From Escherichia phage vB_EcoM_3HA11, in sequence record MN342150: a DNA stretch of 64,000 bases. One strand, written 5' to 3'. This document shows positions 13,629-60,375 of this stretch, piece after piece; positions within the stretch are counted from its first letter, which is position 1; each line of letters starts with the position of its first letter. The translations under genes were made by a program, and so were the position numbers. The notes under the pieces are model-generated. The model made no database searches. It was given only the letters and a program-made list of their open reading frames with translations, and had not been told where the DNA came from.

Positions 13629-13636
13629 CTATTTAG
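13629..13636 (-). promoter_or_regulatory. late-promoter-like motif CTAAATAG
   Basis: About 40 nt upstream of structural gene start 13592; resembles the T4 late consensus TATAAATA. Confidence 0.25.
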
Positions 13637-13645
13637 GACTAGAAT

Positions 13646-14266
13646 ATGGCTATGTATTTGCAGGGGAAGTATGTTCCCGTAAATCCCAAGAAATATAAAG
13701 GCGACGTGAACAAAATAGTATTTCGTTCTTCGCTAGAACTTGTCGCCTTTAAATTTTGTGATATGAATCCTGCTATCGTCTATTGGTCTTCAGAAGAAAC
13801 TGTAATCCCTTACATATCTCCGGTTGATGGTCGCGCCCATCGTTATTTCATGGATTTGAAGGTTTGGACTCGTCGGCAGGATTCCGATGAATTACAAATT
13901 ACTCTTATTGAAATAAAACCCAAAGACCAGATTAAAGAACCTCGCAAAACTAAAACGATGAAGGAATCAACATTCAATAATTCAATGCGCACTTGGTTGG
14001 TAAATCAGGCAAAGTGGACAGCAACTAAAGAACATTGCGCGAAGGTAGGTTGGAAATTCATTATCTGGACAGAAGAACATTTGGTGCCAGGTGAAGACCC
14101 AGAAGTTAAAAAACAATTTGCTCTTCGTTCTAAGAAAAAGCGCGAAGTCGAAATGGAAGATCGACGCCGCGCTCAAAGGATTAATGCGTTGAAAGAGCAA
14201 ATGAAGAAGGAAACTGCTAATAAACAACCAACGCAATTGAAAGATGATGGTTTGTTATTACCCTGA
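13646..14266 (+). CDS. 4: head completion protein (T4 gp4-like)
   Basis: 206 aa; N-terminal LQGKYVPVNPKKYKGD...IVFRSSLELVAFKFCDMNPAIVYWSSEETVIPY matches remembered gp4/gp2-family signature (RSSWE...W..E.VVIPY). Confidence 0.5.
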   Translation: MAMYLQGKYVPVNPKKYKGDVNKIVFRSSLELVAFKFCDMNPAIVYWSSEETVIPYISPVDGRAHRYFMDLKVWTRRQDSDELQITLIEIKPKDQIKEPRKTKTMKESTFNNSMRTWLVNQAKWTATKEHCAKVGWKFIIWTEEHLVPGEDPEVKKQFALRSKKKREVEMEDRRRAQRINALKEQMKKETANKQPTQLKDDGLLLP

Positions 14267-14476
14267 TTTCCTTGGATGTCCAGGGGCAAAGCAAGTTTGT
14301 TTGTCCCTGCATATCATCCACCCATCAGCACGGGCTTGTCTAGCACAGTCTCCCCAAGATTCACCAGCATAAGACTTCATCCCACATCTGGGGTGATGCT
14401 CTTGCCAAGCCCAATCACAAGATTTGCATTCCACACATTCACAATACAAATCTATCGTGTATCCTGCGGTAATCAT
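14258..14476 (-). CDS. small Cys-rich protein (72 aa)
   Basis: Abuts upstream minus-strand gene (start 14476, previous stop 14477); CxCxxC...C pattern; 3' end overlaps the convergent gp4-like gene by 9 nt. Confidence 0.3.
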   Translation of the reverse strand: MITAGYTIDLYCECVECKSCDWAWQEHHPRCGMKSYAGESWGDCARQARADGWMICRDKQTCFAPGHPRKSG

Positions 14477-14884
14477 TTAATCCGCCAGGCGTTCGTAAAT
14501 TTTTTGACGGAACTCATTCCCTTTTGCACAACCTGTGGCCAGCAAACGAGTACCGCCTGTCCCGATGACACTGATAGTTGAAAATCTTAAAATACGGCCT
14601 GTAATGGACTGATCCACTTTGATGGTCTCAACTTTACCCAGGCGAAGTTCATCAGCATCACGGCGGATAAATCCTCGTTTTACGATAACCCGTTTGTTGG
14701 TGACTGCGAATTCCGTGGTCATCACATTCAAGATAGTTGGGATCAGGAATAACAAACTGAAACCAAATGTTGGAATAATCGTTAAAGCGACGAGAACATA
14801 AATCCAGAATCCACTCCACCAAGTCGGACGAGTGAATGCAACCACATATTCATTTTCGCTCAGCATACGATCGACGTAACGCAT
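14477..14884 (-). CDS. membrane protein, bacterial PH-domain-like (135 aa)
   Basis: Two N-terminal hydrophobic helices then a soluble domain (TEFAVTNKRVIVKRGF...), an arrangement typical of bPH/DUF304 proteins. Confidence 0.35.
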   Translation of the reverse strand: MRYVDRMLSENEYVVAFTRPTWWSGFWIYVLVALTIIPTFGFSLLFLIPTILNVMTTEFAVTNKRVIVKRGFIRRDADELRLGKVETIKVDQSITGRILRFSTISVIGTGGTRLLATGCAKGNEFRQKIYERLAD

Positions 14885-14885
14885 T

Positions 14886-27066: not shown

Positions 27067-27888
27067 TTACACCACAGCCAGTTCACAACGGGCGGAAGTT
27101 ACAGAATGGCCGTCCGCGTCTTCTACAACACACCAGTACTCACCCTCAGAAGCAGCGGTGACAGCGTGGTTGACCAGAGACGCAGTCGCTGCTGTTGGGT
27201 TAACACCAGCATCAATCACCACACCTTCGCCGCCAGGGGTGTCAGAGTAATACCACACATAAGAGTACGGCGCGGTGCCGCCAGCAGCAACGATAGTGAA
27301 TGTCGCATCAGCGCCGTCGGCCACGTCCTGAGAAGCAGCCAGATCGGTTGTCAACGACAACAGTCCTGCGATGGTAATGACGGTAGAATCGGTGTGATTT
27401 CCTTCTACAGTAACACCATAAACTGTAACAGAACCAGACTGAAGCAGTTTGAATTTACCACCGCCGATATGGATCGCCTTCGCCAGGTCGCCAGAATACC
27501 AGTTCACTCCTTGATATGTTGCGTTCACAGGAGCAACAGTGGCCAGCAATTCAACGATTTGGCCTATTTCCCCGCTGGCAGTAGCCGGAGTAATGGTCAG
27601 ACCCGTGGTCAGAACAGCAGTCGGATCATGGATTTCATAAGAAACCTGGAAACCTACTGGCTTGGTCGGATCAACTTTGGTGACACCGTCCGCTTGCAGA
27701 TTGCTTTTGGTCAGCAATGCATCAAGACCTTTACATTCGGTCAGGATCTCATCAGGATCTTGATTTAGGCTGGTTTTTTGCCAACCCTTTGCAACACCCG
27801 TCACGACATGATTGCGTTCGGTTTCCGGTTTGTTGCGGACAACTTCCGGCGCGACTAATACTGTGATTGTTGGCATGGTTTCCTCCAC
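27067..27888 (-). CDS. Ig-like (Big_2-type) domain protein
   Basis: 273 aa; ATVAPVNATYQGVNWYSGDLAKA resembles Big_2 signature; C-terminal Y.C...G Ig-like motif; Thr/Ala/Val-rich beta sequence. Confidence 0.45.
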   Translation of the reverse strand: MEETMPTITVLVAPEVVRNKPETERNHVVTGVAKGWQKTSLNQDPDEILTECKGLDALLTKSNLQADGVTKVDPTKPVGFQVSYEIHDPTAVLTTGLTITPATASGEIGQIVELLATVAPVNATYQGVNWYSGDLAKAIHIGGGKFKLLQSGSVTVYGVTVEGNHTDSTVITIAGLLSLTTDLAASQDVADGADATFTIVAAGGTAPYSYVWYYSDTPGGEGVVIDAGVNPTAATASLVNHAVTAASEGEYWCVVEDADGHSVTSARCELAVV

Positions 27889-28247
27889 TCATCCAAATCG
27901 TTGTTCAGAGCCATCATCAGCTCGTTATCTGGTTCGTATGAACCGGAACATAAATCATCTCTCCAAACTCCTAACGTCAACAGTGCTGCCTTTAGACGAG
28001 GATGTTGGTTCTTATCCGTTTTCAACACCAGCATTCGACACACAGCTTCAGTTTCGAAAGTATTGAAAAGAATAATCAATTGATTGATAAGCACACGAGG
28101 ACTTTTCCCTGGCACAAATCTCTTCAATGATTGATTAATTAGCGAAATTCGCTGAATGTCTACCATCAAATCATCCCGTGAGACACCAGCAGTGATATAG
28201 TGTCTCAGGGCATATTCCATCAAATTGCTTTCGTCAACGATAGCCAT
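27855..28247 (-). CDS. hypothetical protein (130 aa)
   Basis: ORF overlapping downstream gene start. Confidence 0.4.
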   Translation of the reverse strand: MAIVDESNLMEYALRHYITAGVSRDDLMVDIQRISLINQSLKRFVPGKSPRVLINQLIILFNTFETEAVCRMLVLKTDKNQHPRLKAALLTLGVWRDDLCSGSYEPDNELMMALNNDLDEWRKPCQQSQY

Positions 28248-28279: not shown

Positions 28280-28693
28280 TTATTTAATCTGGAGTTTTTC
28301 AGTCAATTGAGCAATAATTTCATTCCGGTCGGTAGAAACAATTCCCAAAGGTTCGGCCAATGTTTTAAGATCATTGATGTCAAGCAAGAGAAGGACTTCA
28401 ACCGTAATATCGGTGGATACCACAGTGCCTGGTTTCATAGGCTTACCGAACTTGTCTAACCCATATCGACGTAAAGTACCCGCCAGCCCCGTAAGTTCCT
28501 CCAGAAGCTCCTTCGTGCCGTCTTTGTATTCACAGACCCAACCGTAGTCACCAGCATAAACTACGCCACCGTCGCCCCCCTGAGGGATGTTATCCACCAC
28601 ACGCTGGAGATAACTTGGAAGTTTGTTTTCTTCCTGGGCGGTGATTTCCTGGGAAGTTTGGGTATTTTCAATTTTCTTTGGTGTCTTCGCCAT
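28280..28693 (-). CDS. hypothetical protein (about 137 aa)
   Basis: Start moved to Met with AGGAGA RBS (track ORF begins at 28789). Confidence 0.4.
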   Translation of the reverse strand: MAKTPKKIENTQTSQEITAQEENKLPSYLQRVVDNIPQGGDGGVVYAGDYGWVCEYKDGTKELLEELTGLAGTLRRYGLDKFGKPMKPGTVVSTDITVEVLLLLDINDLKTLAEPLGIVSTDRNEIIAQLTEKLQIK

Positions 28694-28967
28694 GATCAGT
28701 TCTCCTATAGACTGTAATGTATTTACCACAGCAATTGCAGCAATAAACGTGCATGGAATATCCGTCGTCATTGAAATCACACCCACCACAACGACAGAAC
28801 AATTTCACAAACTGGTCACCACTGACTTCTCTTGGAGGAAAATTCTTAAACGAGTATTCTCTGAGTTCACCCTCAAATTGGAATGAATCAACAAGGAACT
28901 TTGTTTTTCGGCGCAGTGATCCAAATGCCTGTTGCTCATACACGAAGTAAACATCTCTGGTTTCCAT
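28668..28967 (-). CDS. Cys-rich small protein (99 aa)
   Basis: CRCGGC...CCNCCGK cysteine cluster; first gene after the rIIB terminator. Confidence 0.35.
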   Translation of the reverse strand: METRDVYFVYEQQAFGSLRRKTKFLVDSFQFEGELREYSFKNFPPREVSGDQFVKLFCRCGGCDFNDDGYSMHVYCCNCCGKYITVYRRTDHGEDTKEN

Positions 28968-38053: not shown

Positions 38054-38221
38054 TTACTTTTTCTTCAGCTCTTCCAGCTTGGCTTCAATTTGGTCCAGAA
38101 TCTCTTTACCTTTCTGGACGATGGCTTCACCGTCTTGCGCGTGTTTACGAAAAACCAGAGCGCCAGCAATGAAACCAACAACCACGCCTGGGAGCGCATA
38201 CACCAACAGATCTTGTAACAT
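38054..38221 (-). CDS. small membrane protein (about 55 aa; below ORF-track cutoff)
   Basis: ATG with GTGAGGA RBS; sequence MLQDLLVYALPGVVVGFIAGALVF then charged tail; coordinates hand-counted. Confidence 0.35.
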   Translation of the reverse strand: MLQDLLVYALPGVVVGFIAGALVFRKHAQDGEAIVQKGKEILDQIEAKLEELKKK

Positions 38222-38259
38222 GATTTATATCCTCACTTTTATAAGCAAGGATATTTATA

Positions 38260-42445: not shown

Positions 42446-45442
42446 TCAACCTTTCTTGCCCATCATGGACAACAGATTAACTCGACGTTTGTGAGACCAA
42501 CCAACCACATCCAAGATAGACTGAATTGGCTCTATGAAGGTCTTTTCAAACGTGGTGTGGTAATCTACCCACTTATCCAGCCCCAACTCCGGAGGGAGGA
42601 AGTCAGGGAAGGCTATGCGGTCGTTCCCCACAGGATTGCCAGGTTTCAGGTTGATGATTTTAACCTTATCACCGGATTCAATAGGCGGAAGACCGAGATC
42701 TTCGTGCTTATCGATCAGCTTGTTGTACATAATACAAGCCTTGGCAGCAAAGTGTGTACCGCTGATATAATTCCCGTTCGCGTCCAGCCACTTCTCAATA
42801 TCGCTTACACCAGATGCCTGAGCGATATCATCCACGGTGAGTTCCATATATTCCTTTTTGTATCCAGCGATTAATTCCTGAACTTCAGCCTCCGTCCCGA
42901 GCAGGACTTTCTCATAACATTTGACAAGACGCTCACGACACCATTCCGGCGTTGTAGACTTACGCGCTTCCAGACCTTTGAATTTTATCTTTGGCTTCTC
43001 ATACTTGATGCCTTCGCTATCGTATACTGCCATGCAATACATCTTCTTGGCTCGCCATACAGCAGACGATGCGATGACCTCACGTTCCCAGACCATGCGC
43101 TGCTCAAACCCGTTCATGGTATTACACAACAACTGCGCCCATTCACTGGTTTTTGGCTGGTAATTCTCTTTGATCCATTGGTCAATGTTATCAACGAGTT
43201 TGTGATGGTCCTTTTCTTCAGGCCACAATTGCTTGACCAGGCGTTCAATGCAAATGTAGTTGGAGTCAGTATCACCCGCGATAACAAAATCCTGACCAGT
43301 AGTGCCGCAAAGTTTGTTCAGATAATCATCGGTGTGGCGTTTGTTCCATTTGTTGATCAGCTGGCCGGAAGTGGTGATTGCTTCAGCGATGTTGATGTTG
43401 AAGTATTCTTTAAACCAGACGTTGGAGATTGCGCCATAACCTGCGTTCATCAAGATCTTCAGACCTTGTTGTAACGTATCTTGAGCAACCCCCAGATCTT
43501 CCCATTTGTGCATGACTTCAGTCAGGTGATCAAGATCGATATGCTTGTGTTCTTCATACCATTCAGGATCGTAGAAACGAGATTTCATGGCGGACTCAAG
43601 GTGGAAATCACCTTTAGACATTTCCTTACACCAACCAGCCCATTGCTCATACTTCAGGCCAGTTGCTTTCTCTCCTTTACGGTCAGCGTATATGCCTCGC
43701 ATAATTTCGGAAAGGAAGGACATCTTCTCATTACTGAAGAACTGAACGTTCGGGGTAAACGAAACGTTATATCGGCGTAATGTTTCAAAATGGAATTCGC
43801 CCAGCGCGACCAATTCATCAACAACTTGTATGCGTTCATCAATAGCACGCTGCAACTTGTCGTGAAGATTTTTGAGATGACGACGTTTATTCATCGGCGT
43901 TGTCATATCATTCATCGCTTTGGTCAATTCCTCACACATGGCCTCAATAATATCACGGCGTGTGTGCTTATCAGAAACGATAGTCTCTGGACCAAGGTTG
44001 TATTGCTGTATGATGTGGGGATACAGGGAGTTTAAGTCCTCAGAGAAGACCCAGAAATATATCCCTGGGGCAACCTCCATGACATATGCGCCTTCAAAAT
44101 CTGTTGGCCCATCATAGACGCGCTGGATTTTCGGGACAATCCCCTTCTCATAAAGACGATAATAACACATCGCCAGCCACGGCGCTACAGTGCCGAGACC
44201 GTCTTCATAGTTGGATTTAGTGCGATAAGCCAATACAAACATCAGCTGTATCAAACGCAGTTTTTGTTCTAAGCGCCACACCAGCTTGACGTCTTTGATA
44301 CCATATCGCGTATGCTTGCAATAATCATTGAAATAAAGGTCATACAATGATTTGCTTTCACTATAATCCAACTTCTTCTCACCGAGTTCACAATAAGCGA
44401 TCCAGTCCAGTGAGTATTTTTCGCGGGTGGTGTAAGTGTGTTTCTTGTACACTTGCATGTAGTCCATCATTGGACAACCCACAAACTGATAAGACGTGAC
44501 GTCGCCTTTACGGTCTTTGATGAAACGTTTCTTCAGTTTACCCCAAGGACTGAGACGTTGGGCTTCAGATTCACCAAGAACCTGCGTAATTCGTTCAACC
44601 AAATAGGGGCTATCGAACGTTTCAATGTTCCAACCAGTCCAACCGTCAAATTGACGTTCCGACCAGTAATCCAAGAAGGCGCGAAGCAGATCTTGTTCCG
44701 TCGTATATTCTTTATATTCAACCTCAAGACCGCCGACTTCTTCATCATTGGGGTCATATTTGAATTTATGGCGATCCTTGGAACACGGCATGCCCCAGAC
44801 ATAGAATTTATTGGTATTCATATCTTGGAGCTGTATCAGCGTAATAGGGAACGCCGCATTCATGTTCTGTGTGATTTTACCGTTACTGTCAATTATAGGG
44901 AATTGGTCAGTCACGTTGTTGGAAATAAAGGAACCAGGGAAATGCTCCCGAACGAAATCATGGTTGGCCAGTACTTGCTTATGGAAACGACGAACCCGCG
45001 CCTCGCTGCCTTTAAACGTGTGAGATTCAATCGTTGCGTGTGGGAATGGACCTTTAGTCATTTCTCCGTCACGCCAACCAGCCGAGAACACTTCGATATC
45101 CACGTTGGCGATGTGGATATTTGAATAATCAGGTGTGATCATCCCAGGAAAACTATGGGCGATGAATTGATATGCATAATCCGTTTGTCCATACACCGCA
45201 GCCCCTTCGACCTCCTTGTACTCCTCAAGATAGTTGTCAGCGTCGCGCATTGATGCAAACTTTTTAGACACCAACGGTTCGTTGAGGAGGCCAATCTTTT
45301 CAACTTTGGAATAATCAGCTGTGGGTAAATACAAGGTGGGTTCGAATTTCTTACGCAACATGCGGCGATTGCCGTTGTCGTCTGCGATACGAATCAGAAG
45401 GTCGTTACCCTGTCGGGCAACGTTCGTATAGAAAACAGTCAT
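42446..45442 (-). CDS. 43: family B DNA polymerase (T4 gp43 homolog)
   Basis: Exo I DIE, Pol motif A DLNSLYP, motif C YGDTDS; start moved to Met 35 of the track ORF (GGAGA RBS; MTVFYTNVARQGNDLLIRIADDNGN parallels gp43 N-terminus), giving about 998 aa. Confidence 0.9.
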   Translation of the reverse strand: MTVFYTNVARQGNDLLIRIADDNGNRRMLRKKFEPTLYLPTADYSKVEKIGLLNEPLVSKKFASMRDADNYLEEYKEVEGAAVYGQTDYAYQFIAHSFPGMITPDYSNIHIANVDIEVFSAGWRDGEMTKGPFPHATIESHTFKGSEARVRRFHKQVLANHDFVREHFPGSFISNNVTDQFPIIDSNGKITQNMNAAFPITLIQLQDMNTNKFYVWGMPCSKDRHKFKYDPNDEEVGGLEVEYKEYTTEQDLLRAFLDYWSERQFDGWTGWNIETFDSPYLVERITQVLGESEAQRLSPWGKLKKRFIKDRKGDVTSYQFVGCPMMDYMQVYKKHTYTTREKYSLDWIAYCELGEKKLDYSESKSLYDLYFNDYCKHTRYGIKDVKLVWRLEQKLRLIQLMFVLAYRTKSNYEDGLGTVAPWLAMCYYRLYEKGIVPKIQRVYDGPTDFEGAYVMEVAPGIYFWVFSEDLNSLYPHIIQQYNLGPETIVSDKHTRRDIIEAMCEELTKAMNDMTTPMNKRRHLKNLHDKLQRAIDERIQVVDELVALGEFHFETLRRYNVSFTPNVQFFSNEKMSFLSEIMRGIYADRKGEKATGLKYEQWAGWCKEMSKGDFHLESAMKSRFYDPEWYEEHKHIDLDHLTEVMHKWEDLGVAQDTLQQGLKILMNAGYGAISNVWFKEYFNINIAEAITTSGQLINKWNKRHTDDYLNKLCGTTGQDFVIAGDTDSNYICIERLVKQLWPEEKDHHKLVDNIDQWIKENYQPKTSEWAQLLCNTMNGFEQRMVWEREVIASSAVWRAKKMYCMAVYDSEGIKYEKPKIKFKGLEARKSTTPEWCRERLVKCYEKVLLGTEAEVQELIAGYKKEYMELTVDDIAQASGVSDIEKWLDANGNYISGTHFAAKACIMYNKLIDKHEDLGLPPIESGDKVKIINLKPGNPVGNDRIAFPDFLPPELGLDKWVDYHTTFEKTFIEPIQSILDVVGWSHKRRVNLLSMMGKKG

Positions 45443-45503: not shown

Positions 45504-46094
45504 ATGACCAAGGAGTTTAAAATGGCAATCCCCTTTGTGAGCATGATTCCAGGGGCGCTAAAGCAACTCTGGAATCTTGGGACTGATTTGGTGCAATATA
45601 AGCGGGAAATTGTTCAGGCTAAACACGATGTTAAACTGGAGGCAATAAAGTCTTCTTCAGAATGGGAACTTTCTAAGATTACCGAAGTCGGCGGATCTTG
45701 GAAAGATGAATTCTGGACAATCGTTTTGGCTGTTCCCGCTATCCTTGTTATGATCGCTCCGGTTGTGGAACTTCTAATGTTCCCCACCGAGTATCATAAA
45801 GGGGATTTCATCAAAGCAGTAATTGATGGTATGCAAGCCCTTGAAACAGCGCCTGATTGGTATACTGCTTCGCTATTGACAGCAATTAGTGCATCATTCG
45901 GTATCAAGGGGTACAACCATTACAAAAGCAATAGCCGGAAGGCGCAAGCTGTGGATGCTCTCAAACAGTTTGGGGTCAAAGTGGTTAACAAAGATCCCAC
46001 TGTTGTTACTCAGTCGGGTTCTCCCGATCTTGAGTCTGCTCCCCCAGCTGGGTCTACTGCGACCTCTGGTGCGTGGCCTGATCTGAAGAAATAA
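45504..46094 (+). CDS. membrane protein (about 196 aa)
   Basis: Divergent from DNA polymerase; GAGGA RBS (alternative ATG at 45522 with AAGGAG); central hydrophobic helix FWTIVLAVPAILVMIAPVV. Confidence 0.4.
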   Translation: MTKEFKMAIPFVSMIPGALKQLWNLGTDLVQYKREIVQAKHDVKLEAIKSSSEWELSKITEVGGSWKDEFWTIVLAVPAILVMIAPVVELLMFPTEYHKGDFIKAVIDGMQALETAPDWYTASLLTAISASFGIKGYNHYKSNSRKAQAVDALKQFGVKVVNKDPTVVTQSGSPDLESAPPAGSTATSGAWPDLKK

Positions 46095-46100
46095 GTTCAA

Positions 46101-46126
46101 GGGGAGGAAACTCCCCTTTCTTTTGG
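46101..46126 (+). terminator. rho-independent terminator
   Basis: Hairpin GGGGAG-gaaa-CTCCCC followed by TTTCTTTTGG. Confidence 0.5.
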
Positions 46127-46135
46127 TGTTAGGGA

Positions 46136-46348
46136 ATGAAAGTGGTAAACAAGAGATTGCTCGTCACCCAAGGCGGGGCGACGATAGTACGCGGACGGAT
46201 ATATGAACAAACCAAGCTGGGTGATCATAAGACTCGTCTGACGGTTAAAGCCCCCGACGGCGGTTGGCCAACAAAGGTGATTGTCCCAGACGGCCTCATA
46301 GAACGAGGGACGGCGACGTATAAGGGTGCAGAGTTCAAAATTTATTAA
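46136..46348 (+). CDS. hypothetical small protein (70 aa)
   Basis: ORF after a hairpin terminator. Confidence 0.35.
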   Translation: MKVVNKRLLVTQGGATIVRGRIYEQTKLGDHKTRLTVKAPDGGWPTKVIVPDGLIERGTATYKGAEFKIY

Positions 46349-46443
46349 AATATTTATTGAATAAAGTTTACTTCTTCAATAACTGGCGTATACTTCTAAT
46401 TGTAGTACGAACAAACAACAATCTGAAGAGAAGGAAATACATC

Positions 46444-47001
46444 ATGGCAATCGAAATTATCGCTCAATCAAAATCAGGCAAGACTGTAATGTACGGCACT
46501 GAAGAAGGCCGCTGCATCATCAACTACGGCACTATCACTGGCGAGTCTCCAGAGAAAGGTGGTCGCTATCTGGTTGAGTACGGATCACGCCTCCTGATGG
46601 TAAGCAAAGTCGATGGTCGTGAAATCATGATTCCTCGTAAAGAATACTTTGACTCACGCTCTGCCGCGATGACTTTCTTCCTCTTCCAGAAACGCCACGA
46701 ACTCTTCGTTGAAGCGAAAGACGCAGGTCTGGACGACGCGACGGCTGAGCTGATTGCCGAAGGTAAAATGACTCTCGAAGCTGCTCTGGGGGACATGGAT
46801 TGCGAAGCCGAAGCACATTATATTGAATATTCCGCATATCAGAACGAATGTGAAGATGATCCGGAAGACGACGGATTCGACCCTGACCTCCACGGCGGCG
46901 AAGACGATAACACCCCTTCCTTAGAAGTTCTGATGGCTGGCGGCCAGGCCGCTTGGGAATGGCAGAACGAGAAGAACGCCTGGCTGGATTCCCGTATCTA
47001 A
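46444..47001 (+). CDS. hypothetical protein with strongly acidic C-terminus (about 185 aa)
   Basis: ATG with AAGGAA RBS inside track ORF 46357..47001; C-terminal ECEDDPEDDGFDPDLHGGEDD. Confidence 0.45.
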   Translation: MAIEIIAQSKSGKTVMYGTEEGRCIINYGTITGESPEKGGRYLVEYGSRLLMVSKVDGREIMIPRKEYFDSRSAAMTFFLFQKRHELFVEAKDAGLDDATAELIAEGKMTLEAALGDMDCEAEAHYIEYSAYQNECEDDPEDDGFDPDLHGGEDDNTPSLEVLMAGGQAAWEWQNEKNAWLDSRI

Positions 47002-47008
47002 TTGACTG

Positions 47009-47030
47009 AAGCCCCTTCGGGGGCTTACTT
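47009..47030 (+). terminator. terminator-like hairpin
   Basis: AAGCCCC-ttcg-GGGGCTT followed by ACTTTG (weak T-run). Confidence 0.35.
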
Positions 47031-47049
47031 TGAACTGAAGGACTATATC

Positions 47050-47202
47050 ATGATTTTAATCTTATGGTTTGTATTCACATTTCTGGCCATGGCCGACATC
47101 GGCAAGTATCACGTTCTCCCAAGCGACCTGACCGTCCTGCTATACGGCATAGTTTCGTTTGTGCTGGGTTCCTTGCGCGCCCATATGAGGACTATATCAT
47201 GA
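47050..47202 (+). CDS. small membrane protein (about 50 aa)
   Basis: ATG with GAAGGA RBS inside ORF 47002..47202; hydrophobic MILILWFVFTFLAMA. Confidence 0.35.
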   Translation: MILILWFVFTFLAMADIGKYHVLPSDLTVLLYGIVSFVLGSLRAHMRTIS

Positions 47203-47396
47203 GCACCCCAAAAACTCCTGTCCGTATCGCTGTTGAGCCTCTGCTGGTTGATGCTGAGAATGCTGCTGAGCAGTACGCGAACAAAATCATCAAGAACATA
47301 ATGGACGATCTAGCATCCAACGGCTGGGACGTTGAGAAGTGCGCTCCGTGGCCATCTTCGGTTGGCGTCAAGTTTGGTGATCCAGTTTACAAATGA
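47199..47396 (+). CDS. hypothetical small protein (about 65 aa)
   Basis: ATGA overlap with previous gene; GAGGA RBS; leader sequence duplicated from the preceding gene. Confidence 0.4.
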   Translation: MSTPKTPVRIAVEPLLVDAENAAEQYANKIIKNIMDDLASNGWDVEKCAPWPSSVGVKFGDPVYK

Positions 47397-47489
47397 AAGA
47401 CTCATACTGCATCGCGGCGTTTCGACGTGCTTCCTTGACAAACAGAGCATGGCGTTCAGGATCAGCTTTGACAATATCCGGCTTCCCAG

Positions 47490-47744
47490 GTGTGTAAGAA
47501 GGATTCACTGCCTGGGTCAAAGAACGGTAGAGTGCGTGTTTTGATTTCATTCGTTGGTAATCTGGAAAACAAAATTGGTGGTCACAGCGCGGCTGTACTG
47601 AATGGTTCCCATGTATGGGGGTATTCAATCCTGACCGTGACTACACCAGAGGGGATCGAGCGCTGGAAGACTCAGACGATTATCAATGTGTCCAAGCTGG
47701 GCAAACTCTTTAACCAATATCCAACCAGGAAGGTGAAGGAGTAA
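47490..47744 (+). CDS. hypothetical small protein (84 aa)
   Basis: Plus-strand ORF ending before the hairpin at about 47757-47777; preferred over the overlapping minus ORF 47368..47628. Confidence 0.3.
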   Translation: MCKKDSLPGSKNGRVRVLISFVGNLENKIGGHSAAVLNGSHVWGYSILTVTTPEGIERWKTQTIINVSKLGKLFNQYPTRKVKE

Positions 47745-47779: not shown

Positions 47780-48238
47780 TTATTTCCCATCCCAAAAGTC
47801 GTCTTCATCGTCTACTTCATCAAACGCAGAATCCAATTCTTCGTCAGAGTACTCTGGAAGGCGACCATTCTGTTTCAGATATTCAATCTCGTCATCTTCC
47901 AATTGAAGATCCGTTGCTATAAACAGTGCTCCGGTCTCTTCATCATGTTCAATGCTATAAGACGTATATTCAGAACCCTGAACTGTAATGATGATAGATG
48001 TTGGATCTTCTGGATCCACGTGAGCTTCAAACGGGATACCGTCAATTGGGGCGTCTTCTAAGAACGTTGCAAGGGCTACGGCAGCGCGGACAACATCCGT
48101 GCCCTGTACCGATGCATAAATTTCTTCTGCACCCGTTTCCCCGCGCTCAAAGAATTCAATCGTAGTTCCGTCTTGAACCCCAGTCCAGATAGGCATATCT
48201 GCTGGTGTATCGGCTTCAAATAATTTTGAAATTGGCAT
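47780..48238 (-). CDS. highly acidic protein (152 aa), candidate DNA mimic
   Basis: About a quarter of residues are Asp/Glu with few Lys/Arg; C-terminal DEVDDEDDFWDG; last gene of the operon before a terminator. Confidence 0.45.
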   Translation of the reverse strand: MPISKLFEADTPADMPIWTGVQDGTTIEFFERGETGAEEIYASVQGTDVVRAAVALATFLEDAPIDGIPFEAHVDPEDPTSIIITVQGSEYTSYSIEHDEETGALFIATDLQLEDDEIEYLKQNGRLPEYSDEELDSAFDEVDDEDDFWDGK

Positions 48239-48273
48239 GTTCGTTTCCTCTATGGATAAACCTTATGGGATAT

Positions 48274-48723
48274 TTAGGCTTCTCTCTTCGCCAGCCCTGG
48301 TTTAAACACGACCATTTCTTCAACGTTATTAGCGCTCATAGAGGCTATGGAATCGAATCCTTTATTGATAAGTTCCTTCACATTATCGTGAATCTTACCA
48401 GGTTCTATCCCCAACTCACGCATTTTGTTTTCCCAAACAGAAACGTTATTAGAATCTATCACCAGAGTCTTCTTGGCCTTAACACGAAATGCCATGACAA
48501 CAGGTTCACCAGATTGACGATAGCGAACGGCGTTTTCCGCGTAGATCTGCGCTTTTTCTGGATCCCCTGTCAGGTAAAATCCAGCACCCATCGTACCTGA
48601 GTCAGTCTGGCCAAATTTTTCAAAGTCAAAGACGTCGAATTCAACATTCGACCCATGATATAAAACAATATCCGTAAAATCGGGCAATGTTGATTCACGA
48701 TAGAATTCTAGGAAGGTTTTCAT
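48274..48723 (-). CDS. hypothetical protein (149 aa) with HGS motif (speculative ADP-ribosyltransferase-fold)
   Basis: LYHGSN near the N-terminus, then aromatic-rich GAGFYLTGD and a later Glu; pattern-level resemblance only. Confidence 0.4.
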   Translation of the reverse strand: MKTFLEFYRESTLPDFTDIVLYHGSNVEFDVFDFEKFGQTDSGTMGAGFYLTGDPEKAQIYAENAVRYRQSGEPVVMAFRVKAKKTLVIDSNNVSVWENKMRELGIEPGKIHDNVKELINKGFDSIASMSANNVEEMVVFKPGLAKREA

Positions 48724-48762
48724 AGATACCCCACACTTGCTGTATGGGGTATTTAGGAGGGA

Positions 48763-50106: not shown

Positions 50107-50790
50107 TTACTTGGTCAGAAAATCCATCAGGCGGCGGAAAAACGATTTGTGTGAGTCACTCACCTTCGGAGGATACTGAAGGATGGGTGGAAGTTCAGGA
50201 TCCACACCAACAGGCGCTCCCTGATCGTTCAGAACACGACTGGCTGGTGGAGTCGGTGGAGTCGGCTTCAAAGATTTGATCGCCTGATTCAGATCGGAAT
50301 TGTCCACAACACTCGCTTCTTCAGCCACAGAAACACACGGCTTGATTAAAACAGATTTCTTAGACTGCTCATACTGATGAGCGATATCTAGATATTTCTT
50401 GCGCTCAGCGTAGAAATCGACGTTCTTAACTTTACGGCGGCGAGCAGTAGAACTCTCTTCACCATAAAAGTCATATCCATTTTTGAACATCCAATTCACT
50501 GCTTGCTCAAATGAATTGAATACCATATACAGGCCGCGCCGCCCGTTGACCATATCGTCTTCGCTGGAATAACCGATGAACACCGCTTGGCCTTTCTTGT
50601 TCAGATCAAATGGGGTGCAGACGCCCGTATCATCTAGGGAACGCGGTGCGAGGTGCCCGTCTCTGTAAATGTAAGCCGGATACAAGAACTCATTCAGAGT
50701 GCGCTTGTTGCCTTTATATGTGTACAGACGAGCAAATGGAGGCAGATCACAAACAACATCATTGTAATCCCAAATTGTTACATTGCGCAT
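50107..50790 (-). CDS. hypothetical protein (227 aa)
   Basis: ORF; Pro-rich C-terminal segment TPPTPPAS. Confidence 0.4.
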   Translation of the reverse strand: MRNVTIWDYNDVVCDLPPFARLYTYKGNKRTLNEFLYPAYIYRDGHLAPRSLDDTGVCTPFDLNKKGQAVFIGYSSEDDMVNGRRGLYMVFNSFEQAVNWMFKNGYDFYGEESSTARRRKVKNVDFYAERKKYLDIAHQYEQSKKSVLIKPCVSVAEEASVVDNSDLNQAIKSLKPTPPTPPASRVLNDQGAPVGVDPELPPILQYPPKVSDSHKSFFRRLMDFLTK

Positions 50791-50861: not shown

Positions 50862-51380
50862 TCAAATGCTGGTCATATAGAGTGGGACAACCTGCTCGGC
50901 AATCAACACGACCTCAGTAATAGTGAAGTCACCGCCATAAGAGTACAGTTTGATTTGCGCCCCGTTTGTCGCCAGATTCCCATCCTTGTCAACACTGAAG
51001 AACGTAATGAAAGACAGGGTGTCCGGCGGCGGTACGCTAGCATCACGACTTCTTGATAACTGGTTCCCAAGAGAGCCAACAAAGTCAACAATCATGGTTC
51101 TGTTTGAAGTGGATCCAGACCATGAACCGACGATATTGACCTTCACCGGAAGAATAGAATCATAAGGAAACGCGTGAAATTTGTGATCTGATAATTTAAA
51201 GAACGGAGCCAAACCAGTAGGAGAAGAAGGGTTCGGAGTCTTCCCATCCAACACAGTTAACAAATCTATTCCAGTTGCCCCAGAAGTTAGAAGTTGTGAC
51301 AAACCGGAAAATCTGACTTCTGTTTTGATGCGATGGGTCTGAAGCATATTCCCCAAATAGGGAGATGTCAAAATGGCCAT
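50862..51380 (-). CDS. hypothetical beta-rich protein (172 aa), possibly structural
   Basis: Ser/Thr/Gly-rich beta-type composition. Confidence 0.4.
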   Translation of the reverse strand: MAILTSPYLGNMLQTHRIKTEVRFSGLSQLLTSGATGIDLLTVLDGKTPNPSSPTGLAPFFKLSDHKFHAFPYDSILPVKVNIVGSWSGSTSNRTMIVDFVGSLGNQLSRSRDASVPPPDTLSFITFFSVDKDGNLATNGAQIKLYSYGGDFTITEVVLIAEQVVPLYMTSI

Positions 51381-51389: not shown

Positions 51390-51623
51390 TTAAGAAACGA
51401 TAACCGTCGCATCAGAATTAATTGCCTTAACCCATCCCACCGTCGGCGGGGTTAAAACGACCATATTTCCTTGATATATGATATGCGCGTTGTTACCCGT
51501 TGGAGTGCTGGGGTTATCACACAGATACACAGAACCGTGAGTCACTTGAAGAGTTTTCAAAGATGTGCCGTCTGAGACTTGCGTCCATGTACTTGCGTTT
51601 GGTGTGATCTTAGCAGTTGCCAT
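51390..51623 (-). CDS. hypothetical beta-rich protein (77 aa), possibly structural
   Basis: TAAATAG late-promoter-like motif upstream; beta-type composition. Confidence 0.4.
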   Translation of the reverse strand: MATAKITPNASTWTQVSDGTSLKTLQVTHGSVYLCDNPSTPTGNNAHIIYQGNMVVLTPPTVGWVKAINSDATVIVS

Positions 51624-51648
51624 AATAGACCTCCTTTACAAGTCAGAT

Positions 51649-51658
51649 CTATTTATTA
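51649..51658 (-). promoter_or_regulatory. late-promoter-like motif TAATAAATAG
   Basis: Upstream of gene 51390..51623. Confidence 0.25.
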
Positions 51659-52742: not shown

Positions 52743-52771
52743 ACAAACCTTTATTTTATTCAACCATAATA

Positions 52772-52848
52772 TGGTGATCCTGGTTGGGTTTGAACCAACG
52801 ACCAATGAATTATGAGTTCACTGCTCTAACCGACTGAGCTACAGGACC
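52772..52848 (-). tRNA. tRNA-Met (anticodon CAU; initiator/elongator/Ile-lysidine not distinguished)
   Basis: 77 nt canonical cloverleaf: acceptor GGTCCTG/CAGGATC, D-arm GCTC-AGTCGGTTA-GAGC, anticodon stem GTGAA/TTCAT with loop CTCATAA, T-loop TTCAAAC, CCA. Confidence 0.75.
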
Positions 52849-53252: not shown

Positions 53253-53259
53253 GCCAACT

Positions 53260-55600: not shown

Positions 55601-55613
55601 TTTATTTATTGAA
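55590..55613 (-). promoter_or_regulatory. promoter-like motif TTCAATAA-N10-TAAAGT (minus strand, weak -10)
   Basis: Upstream of the small peptide gene 55414..55560. Confidence 0.25.
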
Positions 55614-55620
55614 TAAAGCG

Positions 55621-56190: not shown

Positions 56191-56506
56191 TTCCTGAGCC
56201 TCGTCAAATTAATTAAATGTCCCCACTATTATATTGGGAATATGTTTATTGAATATAACCCCAAGAAAGGCCAATAAAATAATGACAGCGATTATTAATA
56301 GGTAAAAACTACTTTTCTACAACATCAAGAAACTGTATCTTAACGCGGTGCCCTTCGAGTTGTGAGTGTTAACGAACAACGAGAAGCAGCCTCCATGGCT
56401 GCGGAATGGGACTGCCTGTCAAGGCGGTGTTACGAGCGAGGGCGTCAGCCCCCTCGCGAGTATATTCGAATAAATTAACGCGCGAGAGCGTTTTGATTCC
56501 CTTTGG

Positions 56507-56513
56507 CTAAATA
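56507..56513 (+). promoter_or_regulatory. late-promoter-like motif CTAAATA
   Basis: About 40 nt upstream of the baseplate gene ATG at 56554. Confidence 0.25.
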
Positions 56514-56553
56514 TCTTCAACACCATATTCAAACTCAGGTGATGGAGATTATC

Positions 56554-58335
56554 ATGGCCACGCAAACAGTTCCTTCACTCGACGTCAGAGCCTTTGAGTA
56601 CATTATCAAACAGCGAATGAAAGCTGATCCCACCTTTAAAGATTATGACTTTGAAGGTTCCGGTCTTAGTGCTATTATTCGTTTGTTGGCATCTGATGCG
56701 AACGCCATAGCCTTTATGCAGAACATGCTTAATGGTGAAGGCCATTTAAAAACAGCAAATCAACGTTCTAATGTTGGTTTGTCTGCTGCTTTTCTTTCTT
56801 ATACCCCCGACAACTATCGGGCGGCATACATGTATGCCAACATCAAAGTAACGCCGTATGACGCCAGTACAGCTCCTAATGAGATCATTATGGACCGCCG
56901 TGTGATGTTCGTTGGGGCGAAGGATGGGAGTTCCTACAACTTTACTGTTGAAAAACCCGTGTCCGCCACGTTGACAACAGACGGTTATTACATGTTCAAC
57001 AACGTGAAACTGATTCAGGGTAACTGGTTGTACAAGACATATGATGTTGAAGGAAGCGCGATTTCGACTTATACGATACCTTCGGAAAATGTTGATATCA
57101 ATCATCTGGTCGTACAGGTACAGGAATCAGAGTCCTCTGATGTTTCAACGACATACCAGAGATACAACAGTCCGTTCGACCTGAATCAATATGCATATCT
57201 CTATTTTGTGGAATTAGGGATAGATGGCCTGTATGTGTTTGAGTTCGGAGATGGTTATCTGTCTCGCCGAGTAGAAGATGGCAACGTTATTTTCCTCCAG
57301 TATTTAGAAACTTCTGGCGCTGAAGGTAATGACATCACTAGTTTATCTTCCGCATCTTCGATAGGCGGGTTTAACCAGGTTGATATAGAATTGGTTTCCG
57401 AACGCAGTGCGGGTGGGGGAGATCCGGAATCTATTGAAGATACGAAGCGTCTGGCACCTTTGGCTTATCAGGCTGATGGCGCTGCCGTTACGGAAACCGA
57501 TTACGGTGTTTTAACTGAACGCTTGTTTTCTAACGTTGCCCGTGCTAAATCATATGGGGGTGATACGCTTTCCCCTCCGGATTCTGGTTACGTTTATATC
57601 GCTGTGATACCATCTGTTGGGGAGACTCTTTCAGACGCAGAGAAGGCTGATATCGTTGCCGCGTTGGACAAATACAACGTTGGGTCCATCACCCCCAAAG
57701 TGGTAGATTCTGAGATCACATATATCCAAGTCGCCACGACTATATTTTGGGATCCGACTTCAACGGTTTATGTTGAAGAACAAATGAAAGTGGTGGTGGG
57801 TAATAGTATCACCAAATGGGGTGAAAACAATCTCGGTGGTTTTGATCAATTGTTCGATAAAGAGATATTGCAGGAAGCAATTACTAAAATGGAACGATCC
57901 ATCAATTCGAATATTACAGCTGTTGGGTATAAACGCCATTTCAAACCAGAATACGGGATTTTGGACAGCTTTACGTTTAATTATGGAAGAAGTATCAAAT
58001 CTGGTTCTGTGAAAATAACAGGGTTCAAACCGCTTCCAGCAGAAGTTGATTTCACTTATTATATGCGCGATGACAATGGCGATTTGAACATGTATAAAGT
58101 GAACAACAACGACACCACTAAAGAATTTTTGGTTCAAAAGACTGGTGTTGTGGATTACGCCAACGGCGTCGTAGATCTTCAGCAGATTACGGTTTCAAAC
58201 TATAATACTGAAGGAGTAACGATCGTTGTGCTACCAGATGGCCTGAACCAGAACATACAGGCTACGCAAAACCAGGTATTCAAGATTGGTGATGTGGTTG
58301 TTACGCCAGAGGTGCGCTATGTCCAAAGATCTTAA
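56554..58335 (+). CDS. baseplate wedge protein (gp6 / Baseplate-J-like, putative)
   Basis: About 593 aa from an ATG with GGAG RBS (track ORF begins at 56503); first gene of a coupled baseplate/fibre operon; CTAAATA late-promoter-like motif upstream. Confidence 0.4.
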   Translation: MATQTVPSLDVRAFEYIIKQRMKADPTFKDYDFEGSGLSAIIRLLASDANAIAFMQNMLNGEGHLKTANQRSNVGLSAAFLSYTPDNYRAAYMYANIKVTPYDASTAPNEIIMDRRVMFVGAKDGSSYNFTVEKPVSATLTTDGYYMFNNVKLIQGNWLYKTYDVEGSAISTYTIPSENVDINHLVVQVQESESSDVSTTYQRYNSPFDLNQYAYLYFVELGIDGLYVFEFGDGYLSRRVEDGNVIFLQYLETSGAEGNDITSLSSASSIGGFNQVDIELVSERSAGGGDPESIEDTKRLAPLAYQADGAAVTETDYGVLTERLFSNVARAKSYGGDTLSPPDSGYVYIAVIPSVGETLSDAEKADIVAALDKYNVGSITPKVVDSEITYIQVATTIFWDPTSTVYVEEQMKVVVGNSITKWGENNLGGFDQLFDKEILQEAITKMERSINSNITAVGYKRHFKPEYGILDSFTFNYGRSIKSGSVKITGFKPLPAEVDFTYYMRDDNGDLNMYKVNNNDTTKEFLVQKTGVVDYANGVVDLQQITVSNYNTEGVTIVVLPDGLNQNIQATQNQVFKIGDVVVTPEVRYVQRS

Positions 58336-59173
58336 TAATGGGCACAACGGGGTTAAGTATGAAACTCCGTTGTTCTACCAGAATGATTTCCCTCTGTTCA
58401 TAGAATTTATGGACACGTTCTTCAATTGGTTGTATAGGCAGCAGGGGTTCACTCAAGAAGAGATATTGGCATATTTGGCAGATACGTCTAGTTGGATGAA
58501 TCCCGAGAGTGAAGATTCTCCTGTTAAACAACTCATAGATTTAAAGGCCGACAAAACGCCAGGCTCTGAAGCCAAAGATTATTTGTCAGATAAATTTTTG
58601 GTCAGAACATTTGAGAACATGATGGCTCTTGATGCCGAGACGCTGCTAGACGCTGATGGAAGGCCGTTGCTTTCTATTGAAGACAAGAACAAGCAGATAG
58701 ACGACTGGTATAATGATTTTGGGTTTCAACGAACTGTCGATAAATCATTTCAAGAATTTGGACATTTTATCCCAGTCGGTTCGGATTCTTTATTGACGGC
58801 CACGGGCGATACGTTCTCTGTTTATATTGAAGGAACTAAACGAAGAACTCTGGATCATCCGCGTTGGCTGAAATTGTTGAAACACATTTATAAAATACGT
58901 GGAACAAAGAAAGCGATTGAATTGTTCTTTTGGATATATTTCGGTTGTCCAGTCAGCGTCTATTTTACGAAAGAAGACATAGGCGGTCTGGACGGAAATT
59001 TTGAATGTGACGGCACGACAGGGATGCGTGATGATTACTATTATGATGAATACACTTATGTTATAGGAGTCCCAGGCGACGTATCTGATTTTGAAGGTGT
59101 GTTTGAGCGCGTCTTCCGTCAGCATTTCCATCCTGCTGGATTTACTGTATTCCTAGAAAGCACAAGGAGCTAA
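58319..59173 (+). CDS. baseplate/tail-fibre-associated protein (putative)
   Basis: About 284 aa; ATG inside track ORF 58286..59173, 17-nt overlap with the preceding gene. Confidence 0.4.
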   Translation: MSKDLNNGHNGVKYETPLFYQNDFPLFIEFMDTFFNWLYRQQGFTQEEILAYLADTSSWMNPESEDSPVKQLIDLKADKTPGSEAKDYLSDKFLVRTFENMMALDAETLLDADGRPLLSIEDKNKQIDDWYNDFGFQRTVDKSFQEFGHFIPVGSDSLLTATGDTFSVYIEGTKRRTLDHPRWLKLLKHIYKIRGTKKAIELFFWIYFGCPVSVYFTKEDIGGLDGNFECDGTTGMRDDYYYDEYTYVIGVPGDVSDFEGVFERVFRQHFHPAGFTVFLESTRS

Positions 59174-59175
59174 AA

Positions 59176-60366
59176 ATGGCCGATTTCCTGAGTCAATATA
59201 CAGGTCAGCAGATAGATCAGATATTGGGTTCTGTTGACGACAAAGTAAGTAAAAACGACGTCATTGATGATTTTGAAGTCAGTGACCCATTGTTTCCGCC
59301 TTCTGCTCGCCTGACTTATGAGTTGAAAAGGTCTGTGGATACGATTAATGATACCCTGACCAACAAAGTTATAAGAACGGATAGTGGCGAACAGACAATC
59401 AATGGCAAAAAGACTTTCAATGCTTTGTTGGTGACCAATGGGGGCATACAAGTCCCCGCTGGAAAATCCGTTTCAATCACAGATGAACCAACGAACTCGA
59501 CAGATGGTGTTAACCTGAGCATGTTGAGAAAGCATGGCGTCAGTGAAGACACTACCCCGCCTGGTTCTGGTTTGGCTGGGGAGTTGTTGACATCCGGATA
59601 TTACAAATTCAATTTGGATTTCACCAGATTGTCTGCGTATACCGGACCAACGTTGCCGACTTCAGTTCCTGTACAGACAGATTCTGGAGCGCGTTATTGG
59701 ACAATGACTGCATTTTTTGATGCGTTGTTTGCAGACAACCGATTTAATGGATATGTGACAACGACAGCGTATGACGCAGATATGCTGAGTCTAGAGTCTC
59801 AGATTAATAACATCAACACGTCGTTGAACGGGAAAGTCAACACCTCAACTTACAACACTAAGATGGCGTCGTTGGATTTGAGTATCTCCAATATCAACAC
59901 GTCTCTGGGTAATAAAGTCGAGGTCAGCACATATAATACGAAGATGACTTCCTTGGACGGCAGTATCAGTTCTCTCACGACTGGTAAGGTCGATGTATCA
60001 ACGTATAATGCCAAAATGACCACAATTGATAACAGTTTAGGGAACGCAGTTTATCGTACCAAAACGAATTTGTCGTCATACACGGTTTCGGCTTCGGGAA
60101 CGACGGCTCTTCCAGATTTTGATTTGGTAAACCTTTGTCAAATACTGGTAACTGCGCAATGGGGGACAGGTAACGTTGTTGACACATATCGAGTAACCAT
60201 AACTCGTGACGGAACGATCAAATCAGAGTTGTTGGTTCAGAAAAGTACGAGCGGTACAGTGACGTTCACAGGGGCTGTGGTGGGTGGCAAATTGAGAATT
60301 TCCGTTGTTAATGCAAATACAACAACCGCTTGTTCTGTCGATTATTCTATTGCAGCTTATTTCTAA
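59176..60366 (+). CDS. tail fibre protein with tandem repeats
   Basis: 396 aa; SGEQTINGKKTFNALLVTNGGIQVPAG fibre-like motif; three tandem repeats of about 20 aa (KVNTSTYNTKMASLD / KVEVSTYNTKMTSLD / KVDVSTYNAKMTTID). Confidence 0.5.
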   Translation: MADFLSQYTGQQIDQILGSVDDKVSKNDVIDDFEVSDPLFPPSARLTYELKRSVDTINDTLTNKVIRTDSGEQTINGKKTFNALLVTNGGIQVPAGKSVSITDEPTNSTDGVNLSMLRKHGVSEDTTPPGSGLAGELLTSGYYKFNLDFTRLSAYTGPTLPTSVPVQTDSGARYWTMTAFFDALFADNRFNGYVTTTAYDADMLSLESQINNINTSLNGKVNTSTYNTKMASLDLSISNINTSLGNKVEVSTYNTKMTSLDGSISSLTTGKVDVSTYNAKMTTIDNSLGNAVYRTKTNLSSYTVSASGTTALPDFDLVNLCQILVTAQWGTGNVVDTYRVTITRDGTIKSELLVQKSTSGTVTFTGAVVGGKLRISVVNANTTTACSVDYSIAAYF

Positions 60367-60368
60367 AA

Positions 60369-60375
60369 CTAAATA
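60369..60375 (+). promoter_or_regulatory. late-promoter-like motif CTAAATA followed by a 9-bp 5'-UTR hairpin
   Basis: Upstream of the tailspike ATG at 60413; inverted repeat AATACCCCT/AGGGGTATT between motif and start. Confidence 0.25.

Follow-up and report, generated by a model that had tools for sequence, protein, structure and literature searches.

TAAATA boxes ahead of virion genes in a Kuttervirus: putative late promoters and predicted hairpins over the ribosome site

Ahead of several structural genes of Escherichia phage vB_EcoM_3HA11, the heptamer CTAAATA stands a few tens of nucleotides (nt) before the start codon, and the question that it raises is whether it is a promoter and, if so, for which form of RNA polymerase. 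We analysed a stretch of 64,000 nt from sequence record MN342150 (the window), for which a sequence-only reading had likened the heptamer to the late promoter of phage T4. The boxes are very probably gp55-type late promoters of a Kuttervirus. Five of the nine promoters listed below for the window also form the 5' arm of a stable predicted hairpin, the 3' arm of which covers the Shine-Dalgarno sequence of the gene that follows.

The window was assigned to Kuttervirus (Ackermannviridae) by sequence identity. Identity to Salmonella phage vB_SenM_UTK0005 (OQ359884.1; Ackermannviridae, Kuttervirus) reaches 99.9% over 6 kb round the baseplate and tailspike genes, where many other ViI-like phages are 92-98% identical. 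Over the full window, the identity to UTK0005 is about 95-99.5% (about 98% overall), with few indels. The UTK0005 record (157,767 base pairs, bp; 208 annotated genes) was used as a stand-in for the whole genome in the genome-wide counts, and its annotated starts, carried across by tblastn, served as the gene starts of the window.

Boxes ahead of virion genes

The upstream zone was defined, in gene orientation, as 15-65 nt before the start codon, and takes up 3.2% of the window strand positions. CTAAATA occurs seven times in the window, against 6.84 expected from dinucleotide shuffles, which is chance level; the excess over chance is found in position and orientation. The upstream zone holds five of these copies, spaced 26-40 nt from the start codon (0.22 expected, p = 7e-7), and nine of the 17 copies of the core hexamer TAAATA (0.54 expected, p = 7e-10). 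In UTK0005, the sense upstream zone of annotated starts holds 30 of 62 TAAATA copies (2.1 expected, p = 1e-27) and 17 of 23 CTAAATA copies (0.8 expected, p = 7e-21); the figure for TAAATA in reverse orientation is 6 of 62. It was by such a genome-wide comparison with gene starts that the sequence-only reading had proposed to judge the motif, and the enrichment is there. The control A/T-rich hexamers TAAATT, AAATAT, TTAAAT and ATAAAT have 6-10% of their copies in the zone, compared with 48% for TAAATA. TAAATA is also depleted overall in the window, with 17 copies for 36 expected; this ratio of 0.48 is the 15th lowest of 3492 hexamers, beside those of avoided restriction-type palindromes, and TAAATA is the rarest of the 15 hexamers built from four A and two T in window and genome alike. 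The raw count of CTAAATA looks like chance because the word is kept out of unwanted places.

The nine sites of the window, together with a tenth that is ambiguous, are as follows.

13630..13636, minus strand: CTAAATA box (CTAAATAG, 13636 to 13629), with 37 nt between box and ATG 13592 of the gp48-like baseplate tube cap gene; predicted start point ~13624.
56507..56513, plus strand: CTAAATA box (CTAAATAT, 56507-56514), 40 nt ahead of ATG 56554 of the gp6-like baseplate wedge gene 56554..58335; predicted start point ~56519.
60369..60375, plus strand: CTAAATAcccc box (CTAAATAC, 60369-60376), 37 nt ahead of ATG 60413 of the 1193-residue tailspike TSP4 (60413..63994) and 2 nt past the stop of the preceding gene; predicted start point ~60381.
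51650..51656, minus strand: ATAAATA box (AATAAATAG, core 51650-51655), 26 nt ahead of ATG 51623 of gene 51390..51623, with the tail needle knob gene 50862..51380 next in order.
48271..48277, minus strand: CTAAATA box, 32 nt ahead of gene 47780..48238.
48750..48756, minus strand: CTAAATAcccc box, 26 nt ahead of gene 48274..48723.
38252..38259, minus strand: TATAAATA, the exact T4 late consensus, 30 nt ahead of the membrane protein gene 38054..38221 (55 residues) and adjoining the stop of gene 38260..39477.
28281..28287, minus strand: TTAAATA box, 33 nt ahead of gene 27855..28247, after which comes a gene annotated as tail fiber protein (27067..27876); the box contains the TAA stop of the preceding gene.
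28720..28726, minus strand: GTAAATA, a weaker candidate box, 26 nt ahead of gene 28280..28693 and within the end of the preceding coding region.
55603..55609, minus strand: ATAAATA, ambiguous, 39 nt ahead of an unannotated small open reading frame and inside TTCAATAAATA.

All four sites named in the sequence-only reading (the first four above) are present on the strands given there, 26-40 nt ahead of start codons; that list had missed five more of equal geometry, all on the minus strand (48271-48277, 48750-48756, 38252-38259, 28281-28287 and 28720-28726). The gp48-like gene (12624..13592; phrog_230, baseplate tail tube cap) is the first of a four-gene minus-strand operon, and a terminator-like hairpin (51693-51671) lies immediately upstream of the 51650 box. 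The site at 55603 is kept ambiguous as a tenth promoter because it overlaps the early-type element TTCAATAA; it may belong to an early-type -35-like element instead of the late class. Two other copies of CTAAATA on the minus strand are not promoter-like: that at 40015 lies 13 nt inside an open reading frame and that at 57301 is antisense within the gp6 gene.

Alignment of the 30 UTK0005 sites gives C17/A7/T5/G1 at -12, followed by TAAATA, with -13 unconstrained. No base exceeds 16 of 30 in the columns upstream and hence there is no conserved -35 element. C and T predominate from -5 to -2 (C at 14, 16, 11 and 14 of 30), and the sites are A-rich only from about -1 to +3. The likeness to the T4 motif that had been noted therefore stands, with the amendment that the C placed at position 1 falls at -12 of an octamer spanning -13 to -6 and is a preference (17 of 30). 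Within the window, C occupies -12 at five of the nine sites, the full CTAAATAcccc being present at 48750 and 60369; the G of the 28720 box has a counterpart at one of the 30 genome sites.

The genes behind the boxes in UTK0005 are mostly virion or lysis genes (gp48, gp54, gp2, gp26, gp18, gp6, three tailspikes, neck genes and the endolysin), and the virion genes behind window boxes are gp48, gp6, TSP4 and the needle-knob operon.

Five sites (ahead of 47780, 48274, 51390, gp6 and TSP4) were compared across four genus-level groups, namely Kuttervirus, Agtrevirus-like, Limestonevirus and Serratia MAM1-like, using orthologous regions from IMG/VR in which the identity of gp6 to that of the window runs from 99% down to 60%. 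The TAAATA core is unchanged in every orthologue recovered, as CTAAATA at four of the sites and as ATAAATA at 51390, and the 30-40 nt upstream of the box are largely rewritten in the same orthologues. The gp6 box is invariant in 21 loci, to 60% protein identity, and the 48750 box in 12 orthologous loci, to about 60%. Further afield, (C)TAAATA is found 20-46 nt before structural genes in Vibrio phage K356 (40% gp6 identity) and Delftia phage PhiW-14 (32%).

The factors that read such a promoter in T4 all have homologues in the UTK0005 genome, outside the region of the window. The gp55 homologue (256 residues) carries the annotation of a late-transcription sigma factor; in PHROGs it falls to phrog_234 (late sigma transcription factor; 3.6e-53), and by tblastn it matches the gp55 genes of cyanophages and Aeromonas phages. 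It gave no match in Pfam, in NCBIfam or in a phmmer search of Protein Data Bank chains, where the T4 gp55 complexes (PMC7892883) were to be expected; we therefore take it as a diverged member of the family, identified through PHROGs and tblastn. For gp33, the homologue was recognized by Pfam PF16805 (phage late-transcription coactivator; 4.6e-19), and for the sliding clamp gp45 by phrog_223 (4.8e-65). The check for gp55- and gp33-like genes suggested with the original heptamer thus finds both, beyond the window. Homologues of gp55, gp33 and gp45 in ViI-like phages are also reported in the genome papers of CBA120 and AG3 (PMC3184105, PMC3121705).

The position and orientation bias, the conservation and the factor genes in UTK0005 support the late-promoter reading. 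By homology with T4, the host RNA polymerase core with the sigma-like gp55, aided by gp33 and the sliding clamp gp45, would late in infection recognize (C>A>T)TAAATA, a lone -10-like element at -12 to -6 that lacks an accompanying -35 element, and would start ~6 nt downstream. About nine such promoters in the window would then serve baseplate, tailspike, tail needle and small unknown genes.

Hairpins between box and start codon

The significance of predicted hairpins was expressed as a z-score against 200 shuffles. Those that join a window promoter to a ribosome site are listed in order of z-score.

60372-60385 / 60395-60408, plus strand: TSP4 hairpin, 14 bp with G-U pairs; -19.1 kcal/mol, z = -5.7, with 0 of 200 shuffles as stable.
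48726..48752, minus strand: 48750 hairpin, ATACCCCATAC/GTGTGGGGTAT; -17.9 kcal/mol, z = -4.9; the 5' arm extends into the box, and the Shine-Dalgarno sequence GGGG makes up the 3' arm.
38227..38254, minus strand: 38252 hairpin, arms 38254-38243 / 38238-38227; -13.3 kcal/mol, z = -4.4, with 0 of 200 shuffles as stable; the 5' arm begins inside the box and holds the predicted start point ~38246, and the 3' arm covers the Shine-Dalgarno sequence GAGGA.
56513..56549, plus strand: gp6 hairpin, interrupted, in which 56513-56519 and 56521-56524 pair with 56538-56541 and 56543-56549; -17.1 kcal/mol, z = -3.4; the 3' arm contains the Shine-Dalgarno sequence GGAG.
51624..51653, minus strand: 51650 hairpin, AATAGATCT/AGGTCTATT, which takes in part of the Shine-Dalgarno sequence GGAGG; -8.6 kcal/mol, z = -2.4.

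No significant structure was found in the shuffle test at 13630 (no hairpin, z = +0.8), at 48271 (no hairpin in this phage, z = -0.05), at 28281 (weak structure, z = -1.3) or at 28720 (z = +0.2, 300 shuffles). The five hairpins share a common geometry, in which the 5' arm runs from the ATA of the box through the C/T-rich bases and the G-rich Shine-Dalgarno region, 2-8 nt short of the ATG, supplies the 3' arm. This geometry fits a promoter in the 5' strand if the start point is 6 nt past the box, as in T4, from which it was carried over. At the tailspike gene, the inverted repeat described in the sequence-only reading exists, with 10 perfect bp (AATACCCCTA/TAGGGGTATT; 14 with G-U pairs) in place of nine; it does not simply span the 5' untranslated region as had been supposed, its 5' arm beginning inside the box and overlapping the promoter to the start point, and its 3' arm, AGGGGTATT, being the Shine-Dalgarno region. 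As the 5' arm reaches the predicted start point, the late transcript should lack most of the repeat.

The pairing recurs in the UTK0005 genome, where the 11 bases comprising TAAATA and the next five pair with the pre-ATG segment of their own gene at a mean of -5.7 kcal/mol, compared with -3.55 for mismatched pairs (permutation p = 5e-5). A pairing of -8 kcal/mol or lower is seen at 10 of the 30 sites, against 9% of mismatched pairs. One such promoter-hairpin precedes the endolysin gene (site 55432; TTAAATACCTCTGCA...TGCGGAGGTATTT, -18 kcal/mol). When the RNA is extended 60 nt upstream, the predicted accessibility of the Shine-Dalgarno/AUG region is 0.35 for box genes and 0.45 for the other 177 genes (p = 4e-5); with RNA from the predicted start point, the values are 0.51 and 0.53.

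Across genera, the stem arms are kept and the loops vary, the five-base loop at 48750 being represented by five different sequences. The TSP4 hairpin has an 11-bp core that is invariant in nine distinct orthologues, with a loop and stem extension that vary by genus. In MAM1-like phages, an equivalent of the gp6 hairpin is built from different bases and the 48271 site, too, has a strong hairpin, which it has in these phages only. In the 51650 stem, C-G takes the place of G-C in a Limestonevirus-like orthologue, and another lineage has a mismatched intermediate.

These predictions suggest how the two signals would work together. In read-through RNA, the end of the box and the C/T-rich bases would pair with the Shine-Dalgarno sequence and the ribosome site would be hidden, and in some relatives termination may follow. 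RNA begun at the late promoter would lack the 5' arm and hence be translatable; with +1 six bases past the box, at the 3' edge of the anti-Shine-Dalgarno segment, it could not form the helix. On this modelling, the hairpins probably silence read-through transcripts. We regard as evenly balanced the broader proposition that, in enterobacterial Ackermannviridae, about a third of late promoters are built into the 5' arm of a hairpin that hides the ribosome site of their own gene, so that these genes (tailspikes, the baseplate wedge, the endolysin and a small membrane protein) would be blind to RNA other than that from their own late promoter, and the published 'cCcc' tail of the motif would be an anti-Shine-Dalgarno segment.

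The hairpin sites might instead be mainly intrinsic terminators or 3'-end stabilizers of the preceding gene, with TAAATA serving as the A-tract that pairs with a U-tract and any effect on translation being incidental. The hairpins do begin 2-10 nt past the preceding stop codon, TATTTTT or TATTTTC follows the hairpin at UTK0005 sites 43615, 55432, 96601 and 124482 and at the Agtrevirus-like TSP4 site, and a few TAAATA copies lie in the loops of clear terminators. The hairpins of the window, however, have no T-run and do not match the terminator consensus: a terminator scan of 46000-64000 did not report them (site 38252 being beyond the scanned range) and found no terminator-like site at or just upstream of 48750, 56507 or 60369. 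Moreover, four window promoters and ~20 of the 30 genome sites have a box without a hairpin, and the 3' arm always falls on the Shine-Dalgarno sequence, with constant spacing to the ATG. As the main function, termination is thus improbable; it is compatible with promoter function and the two can coexist. Since some paralogous and orthologous copies carry a T-run, the hairpins may stop upstream transcripts, silence them, or both.

Known late promoters and other readings of the box

The T4 late promoter is the octamer TATAAATA at -13 to -6, without a -35 element, and is read by gp55, gp33 and the gp45 clamp (PMC2988020, PMC7892883, PMC1524935). Within the octamer, -13 and -12 are the positions known to vary. 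The boxes described here share with it the single -10-like element, the identical TAAATA core, the missing -35 element, the virion and lysis genes served on either strand, the short leaders and, in UTK0005, the homologues of the three factors; site 38252-38259 is the exact T4 octamer. They differ in that -12 is mostly C (17 of 30) where T4 has A, in that -13 is unconstrained, in that -5 to -2 is C/T-rich whereas the T4 segment directly downstream of the box is A/T-rich (PMC2988020), and in that the 256-residue gp55 homologue is highly diverged. The late promoters of this group are, moreover, predicted from sequence.

The CTAAATA late motif is already known for ViI-like phages and for Aeromonas phage Aeh1, and we count it here as the rediscovery of a published in silico motif because it is listed for both. 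The form CTAAATAcCcc is reportedly due to Adriaenssens et al. 2012 (Arch Virol). The CBA120 paper of 2011 stated that the late motif of ViI-like phages had not yet been identified (PMC3184105); the 2020 paper on EspM4VN (Ackermannviridae) gives 'TTCAAT[N14]TATAAT and CTAAATAcCcc' as its two unique regulatory motifs, with positions (PMC7283392). The late motif, the phage group (Viunalikevirus / Ackermannviridae) and the early-motif partner are the same as ours, and both motifs were recovered here. What differs is that we found no published link between the cCcc extension and Shine-Dalgarno pairing, PMC7283392 giving string and positions only. For Aeh1, Nolan et al. 2006 derived the late consensus CTAAATA starting at -12 (PMC1524935; restated in PMC2988020). 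That heptamer, identical to ours including the C at -12, was recognized in silico ahead of late-gene orthologues and tied to a gp55 that has diverged, in another phage lineage; the available part of that paper (PMC1524935) mentions neither a C-rich extension nor hairpin coupling.

In T4, the genes e, soc, 49 and I-TevI have a late promoter in the 5' strand of a hairpin, such that upstream transcripts hide the ribosome site and late transcripts are translated (PMC3014915). The arrangement predicted here is alike, with box through start point as the 5' arm and the Shine-Dalgarno sequence in the 3' arm, also at the UTK0005 endolysin site 55432. It differs in extent, about a third of late promoters, including those of tailspike and baseplate genes, as against a handful in T4, and in that some of the upstream RNA would itself be late, some copies are terminator-like and the device is here a predicted one. 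Hairpin coupling is plausible as an extension of the known T4 device, and no account of it for Ackermannviridae turned up in the literature searched.

Several points weigh against the late-promoter reading and its extension to hairpins. The genes for gp55, gp33 and gp45 are all missing from the window; the bases directly after the box are C-rich, unlike the corresponding T4 segment; and several box-bearing genes have no assigned function. Exact TAAATA is absent within 90 nt upstream of the UTK0005 genes for the major capsid protein gp23, the portal gp20 and the tail tube gp19, so that variant boxes or longer operons must be involved. The start point was taken from T4 and not from this phage group, and a literature search found no 5'-end mapping or time-resolved RNA sequencing for any Ackermannviridae. 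RNAalifold on orthologous hairpins gave essentially no covariation and was uninformative, the stem cores being invariant, and the only clean two-sided stem change (51650, G-C to C-G) falls outside the consensus alignment; the support for the hairpins accordingly comes from recurrence at unrelated sites and not from classical covariation. At the tailspike, RNA arriving from upstream would itself be late, with its origin at the gp6 promoter, so that timing can be at most a part of the purpose, and a role in insulation or dosage is favoured there over one in timing.

Instead of late promoters, the boxes might belong to early or middle promoters of host sigma-70, as their -10 elements. TAAATA has T1, A2 and A4 in common with TATAAT, and a sigma-70 scan gives many weak matches in the region, but their number is at shuffle level (35 against 31.5 expected). 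The last letter of the box is A, at the place where sigma-70 requires its most conserved T; upstream, neither a -35 nor a TG element is conserved; and the genes served are mostly virion and lysis genes. Furthermore, a separate class, TTCAAT-N14-TATAAT, serves other genes with almost no overlap: the motif TTCAAT-N13-15-TAnnnT precedes 14 genes and the TAAATA box 30, with one gene shared (1/43). The boxes lack the features of this sigma-70 early class of the phage, TTCAAT at -35 and a -10 element ending in T. With the final A, the missing -35 and TG elements and a separate sigma-70-like class, we consider the sigma-70 reading very unlikely. That the boxes are a functionless chance word in A/T-rich intergenic DNA, as the raw count of CTAAATA would allow, is already refuted statistically by the excess of TAAATA over other A/T-rich hexamers in the zone, the orientation (30 to 6), the depletion elsewhere and the invariance at orthologous sites amid diverging neighbours, and deserves next to no credence.

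Early-type TTCAAT(AA)-N14-TATAAT sites were located in the window at 42420-42445, 38009-38034, 35054-35079 and 56228-56253 on the minus strand and at 7595-7619 on the plus strand. Another, TTCAAT...TAAAAT at 50832-50857 (minus strand), stands ahead of gene 50107..50790 within the otherwise late-looking 51623 to 47780 gene cluster. Some early-type -10 boxes form the loop or middle part of G+C-rich palindromes such as GGGGGA-TATAAT-TCCCCC, and matching palindromes in UTK0005 often precede a T-run; such a motif looks like a promoter within a terminator-like hairpin.

Neighbouring loci and uses of the box map

Since the motif had already been listed in silico, the promoter itself adds little. The map of boxes gives precise late transcription units for phages that are widely used in the biocontrol of Salmonella and E. 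coli and in tailspike engineering, and it helps to mend start codons. Three UTK0005 genes (42979..43590, 45976..47601 and 122179..124461) have annotated starts within the 3' arm of promoter hairpins; their true start is more likely to be the ATG that follows 12-15 nt downstream, for which the G-rich arm would act as Shine-Dalgarno sequence. If hairpin coupling holds, swapping a tailspike or reporter gene without its promoter-hairpin cassette could change expression greatly, and a control device of a few T4 genes would become a general design rule in a second phage family.

Two further tailspike genes, past the 3' end of the window, have promoter-hairpin cassettes that are near-identical over ~45 nt (taaattttattagttcagRcTAAATAccccatattgg...).

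UTK0005 124482 and 126692: repeated tailspike cassettes.
L041 17030-17090 and 19240-19300: the same cassettes.

Such repeats could be recombination points for the swapping of tailspike genes.

The membrane protein gene 38054..38221 (minus strand) lies at the end of the DNA polymerase gene string and encodes 55 residues with one predicted membrane span and a charged tail (MLQDLLVYALPGVVVGFIAG...). The protein has no Pfam match and belongs to phrog_3879, of unknown function. The gene is preceded by the exact TATAAATA and a predicted hairpin hiding its Shine-Dalgarno sequence, an arrangement that the T4 lysozyme gene also has, and is a candidate lysis or holin-type gene. According to the CBA120 paper of 2011, no holin had yet been identified in the ViI-like group (PMC3184105).

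G+C-rich palindromes are strongly avoided in the window (GGCGCC, 0 against 23.5 expected; CGGCCG, 0 against 18.1; CCGCGG, 2 against 17), as is GCCGGC in the UTK0005 genome (0 against 21 expected), and this scarcity is consistent with the avoidance of restriction sites. Window positions ~4680-6130 align poorly or not at all to UTK0005; open reading frame 4684..5307 in this stretch has a borderline Pfam match to PspA/IM30 (33.6 bits, with a cut-off of 33.9). Five tRNA genes (Ser-GCT, Ile-GAT, Asn-GTT, Trp-CCA and Met-CAT) are clustered at 52007-52848 on the minus strand, and the tRNA-Ile among them, found by ARAGORN, sits where the UTK0005 record reads 'tRNA-OTHER'.

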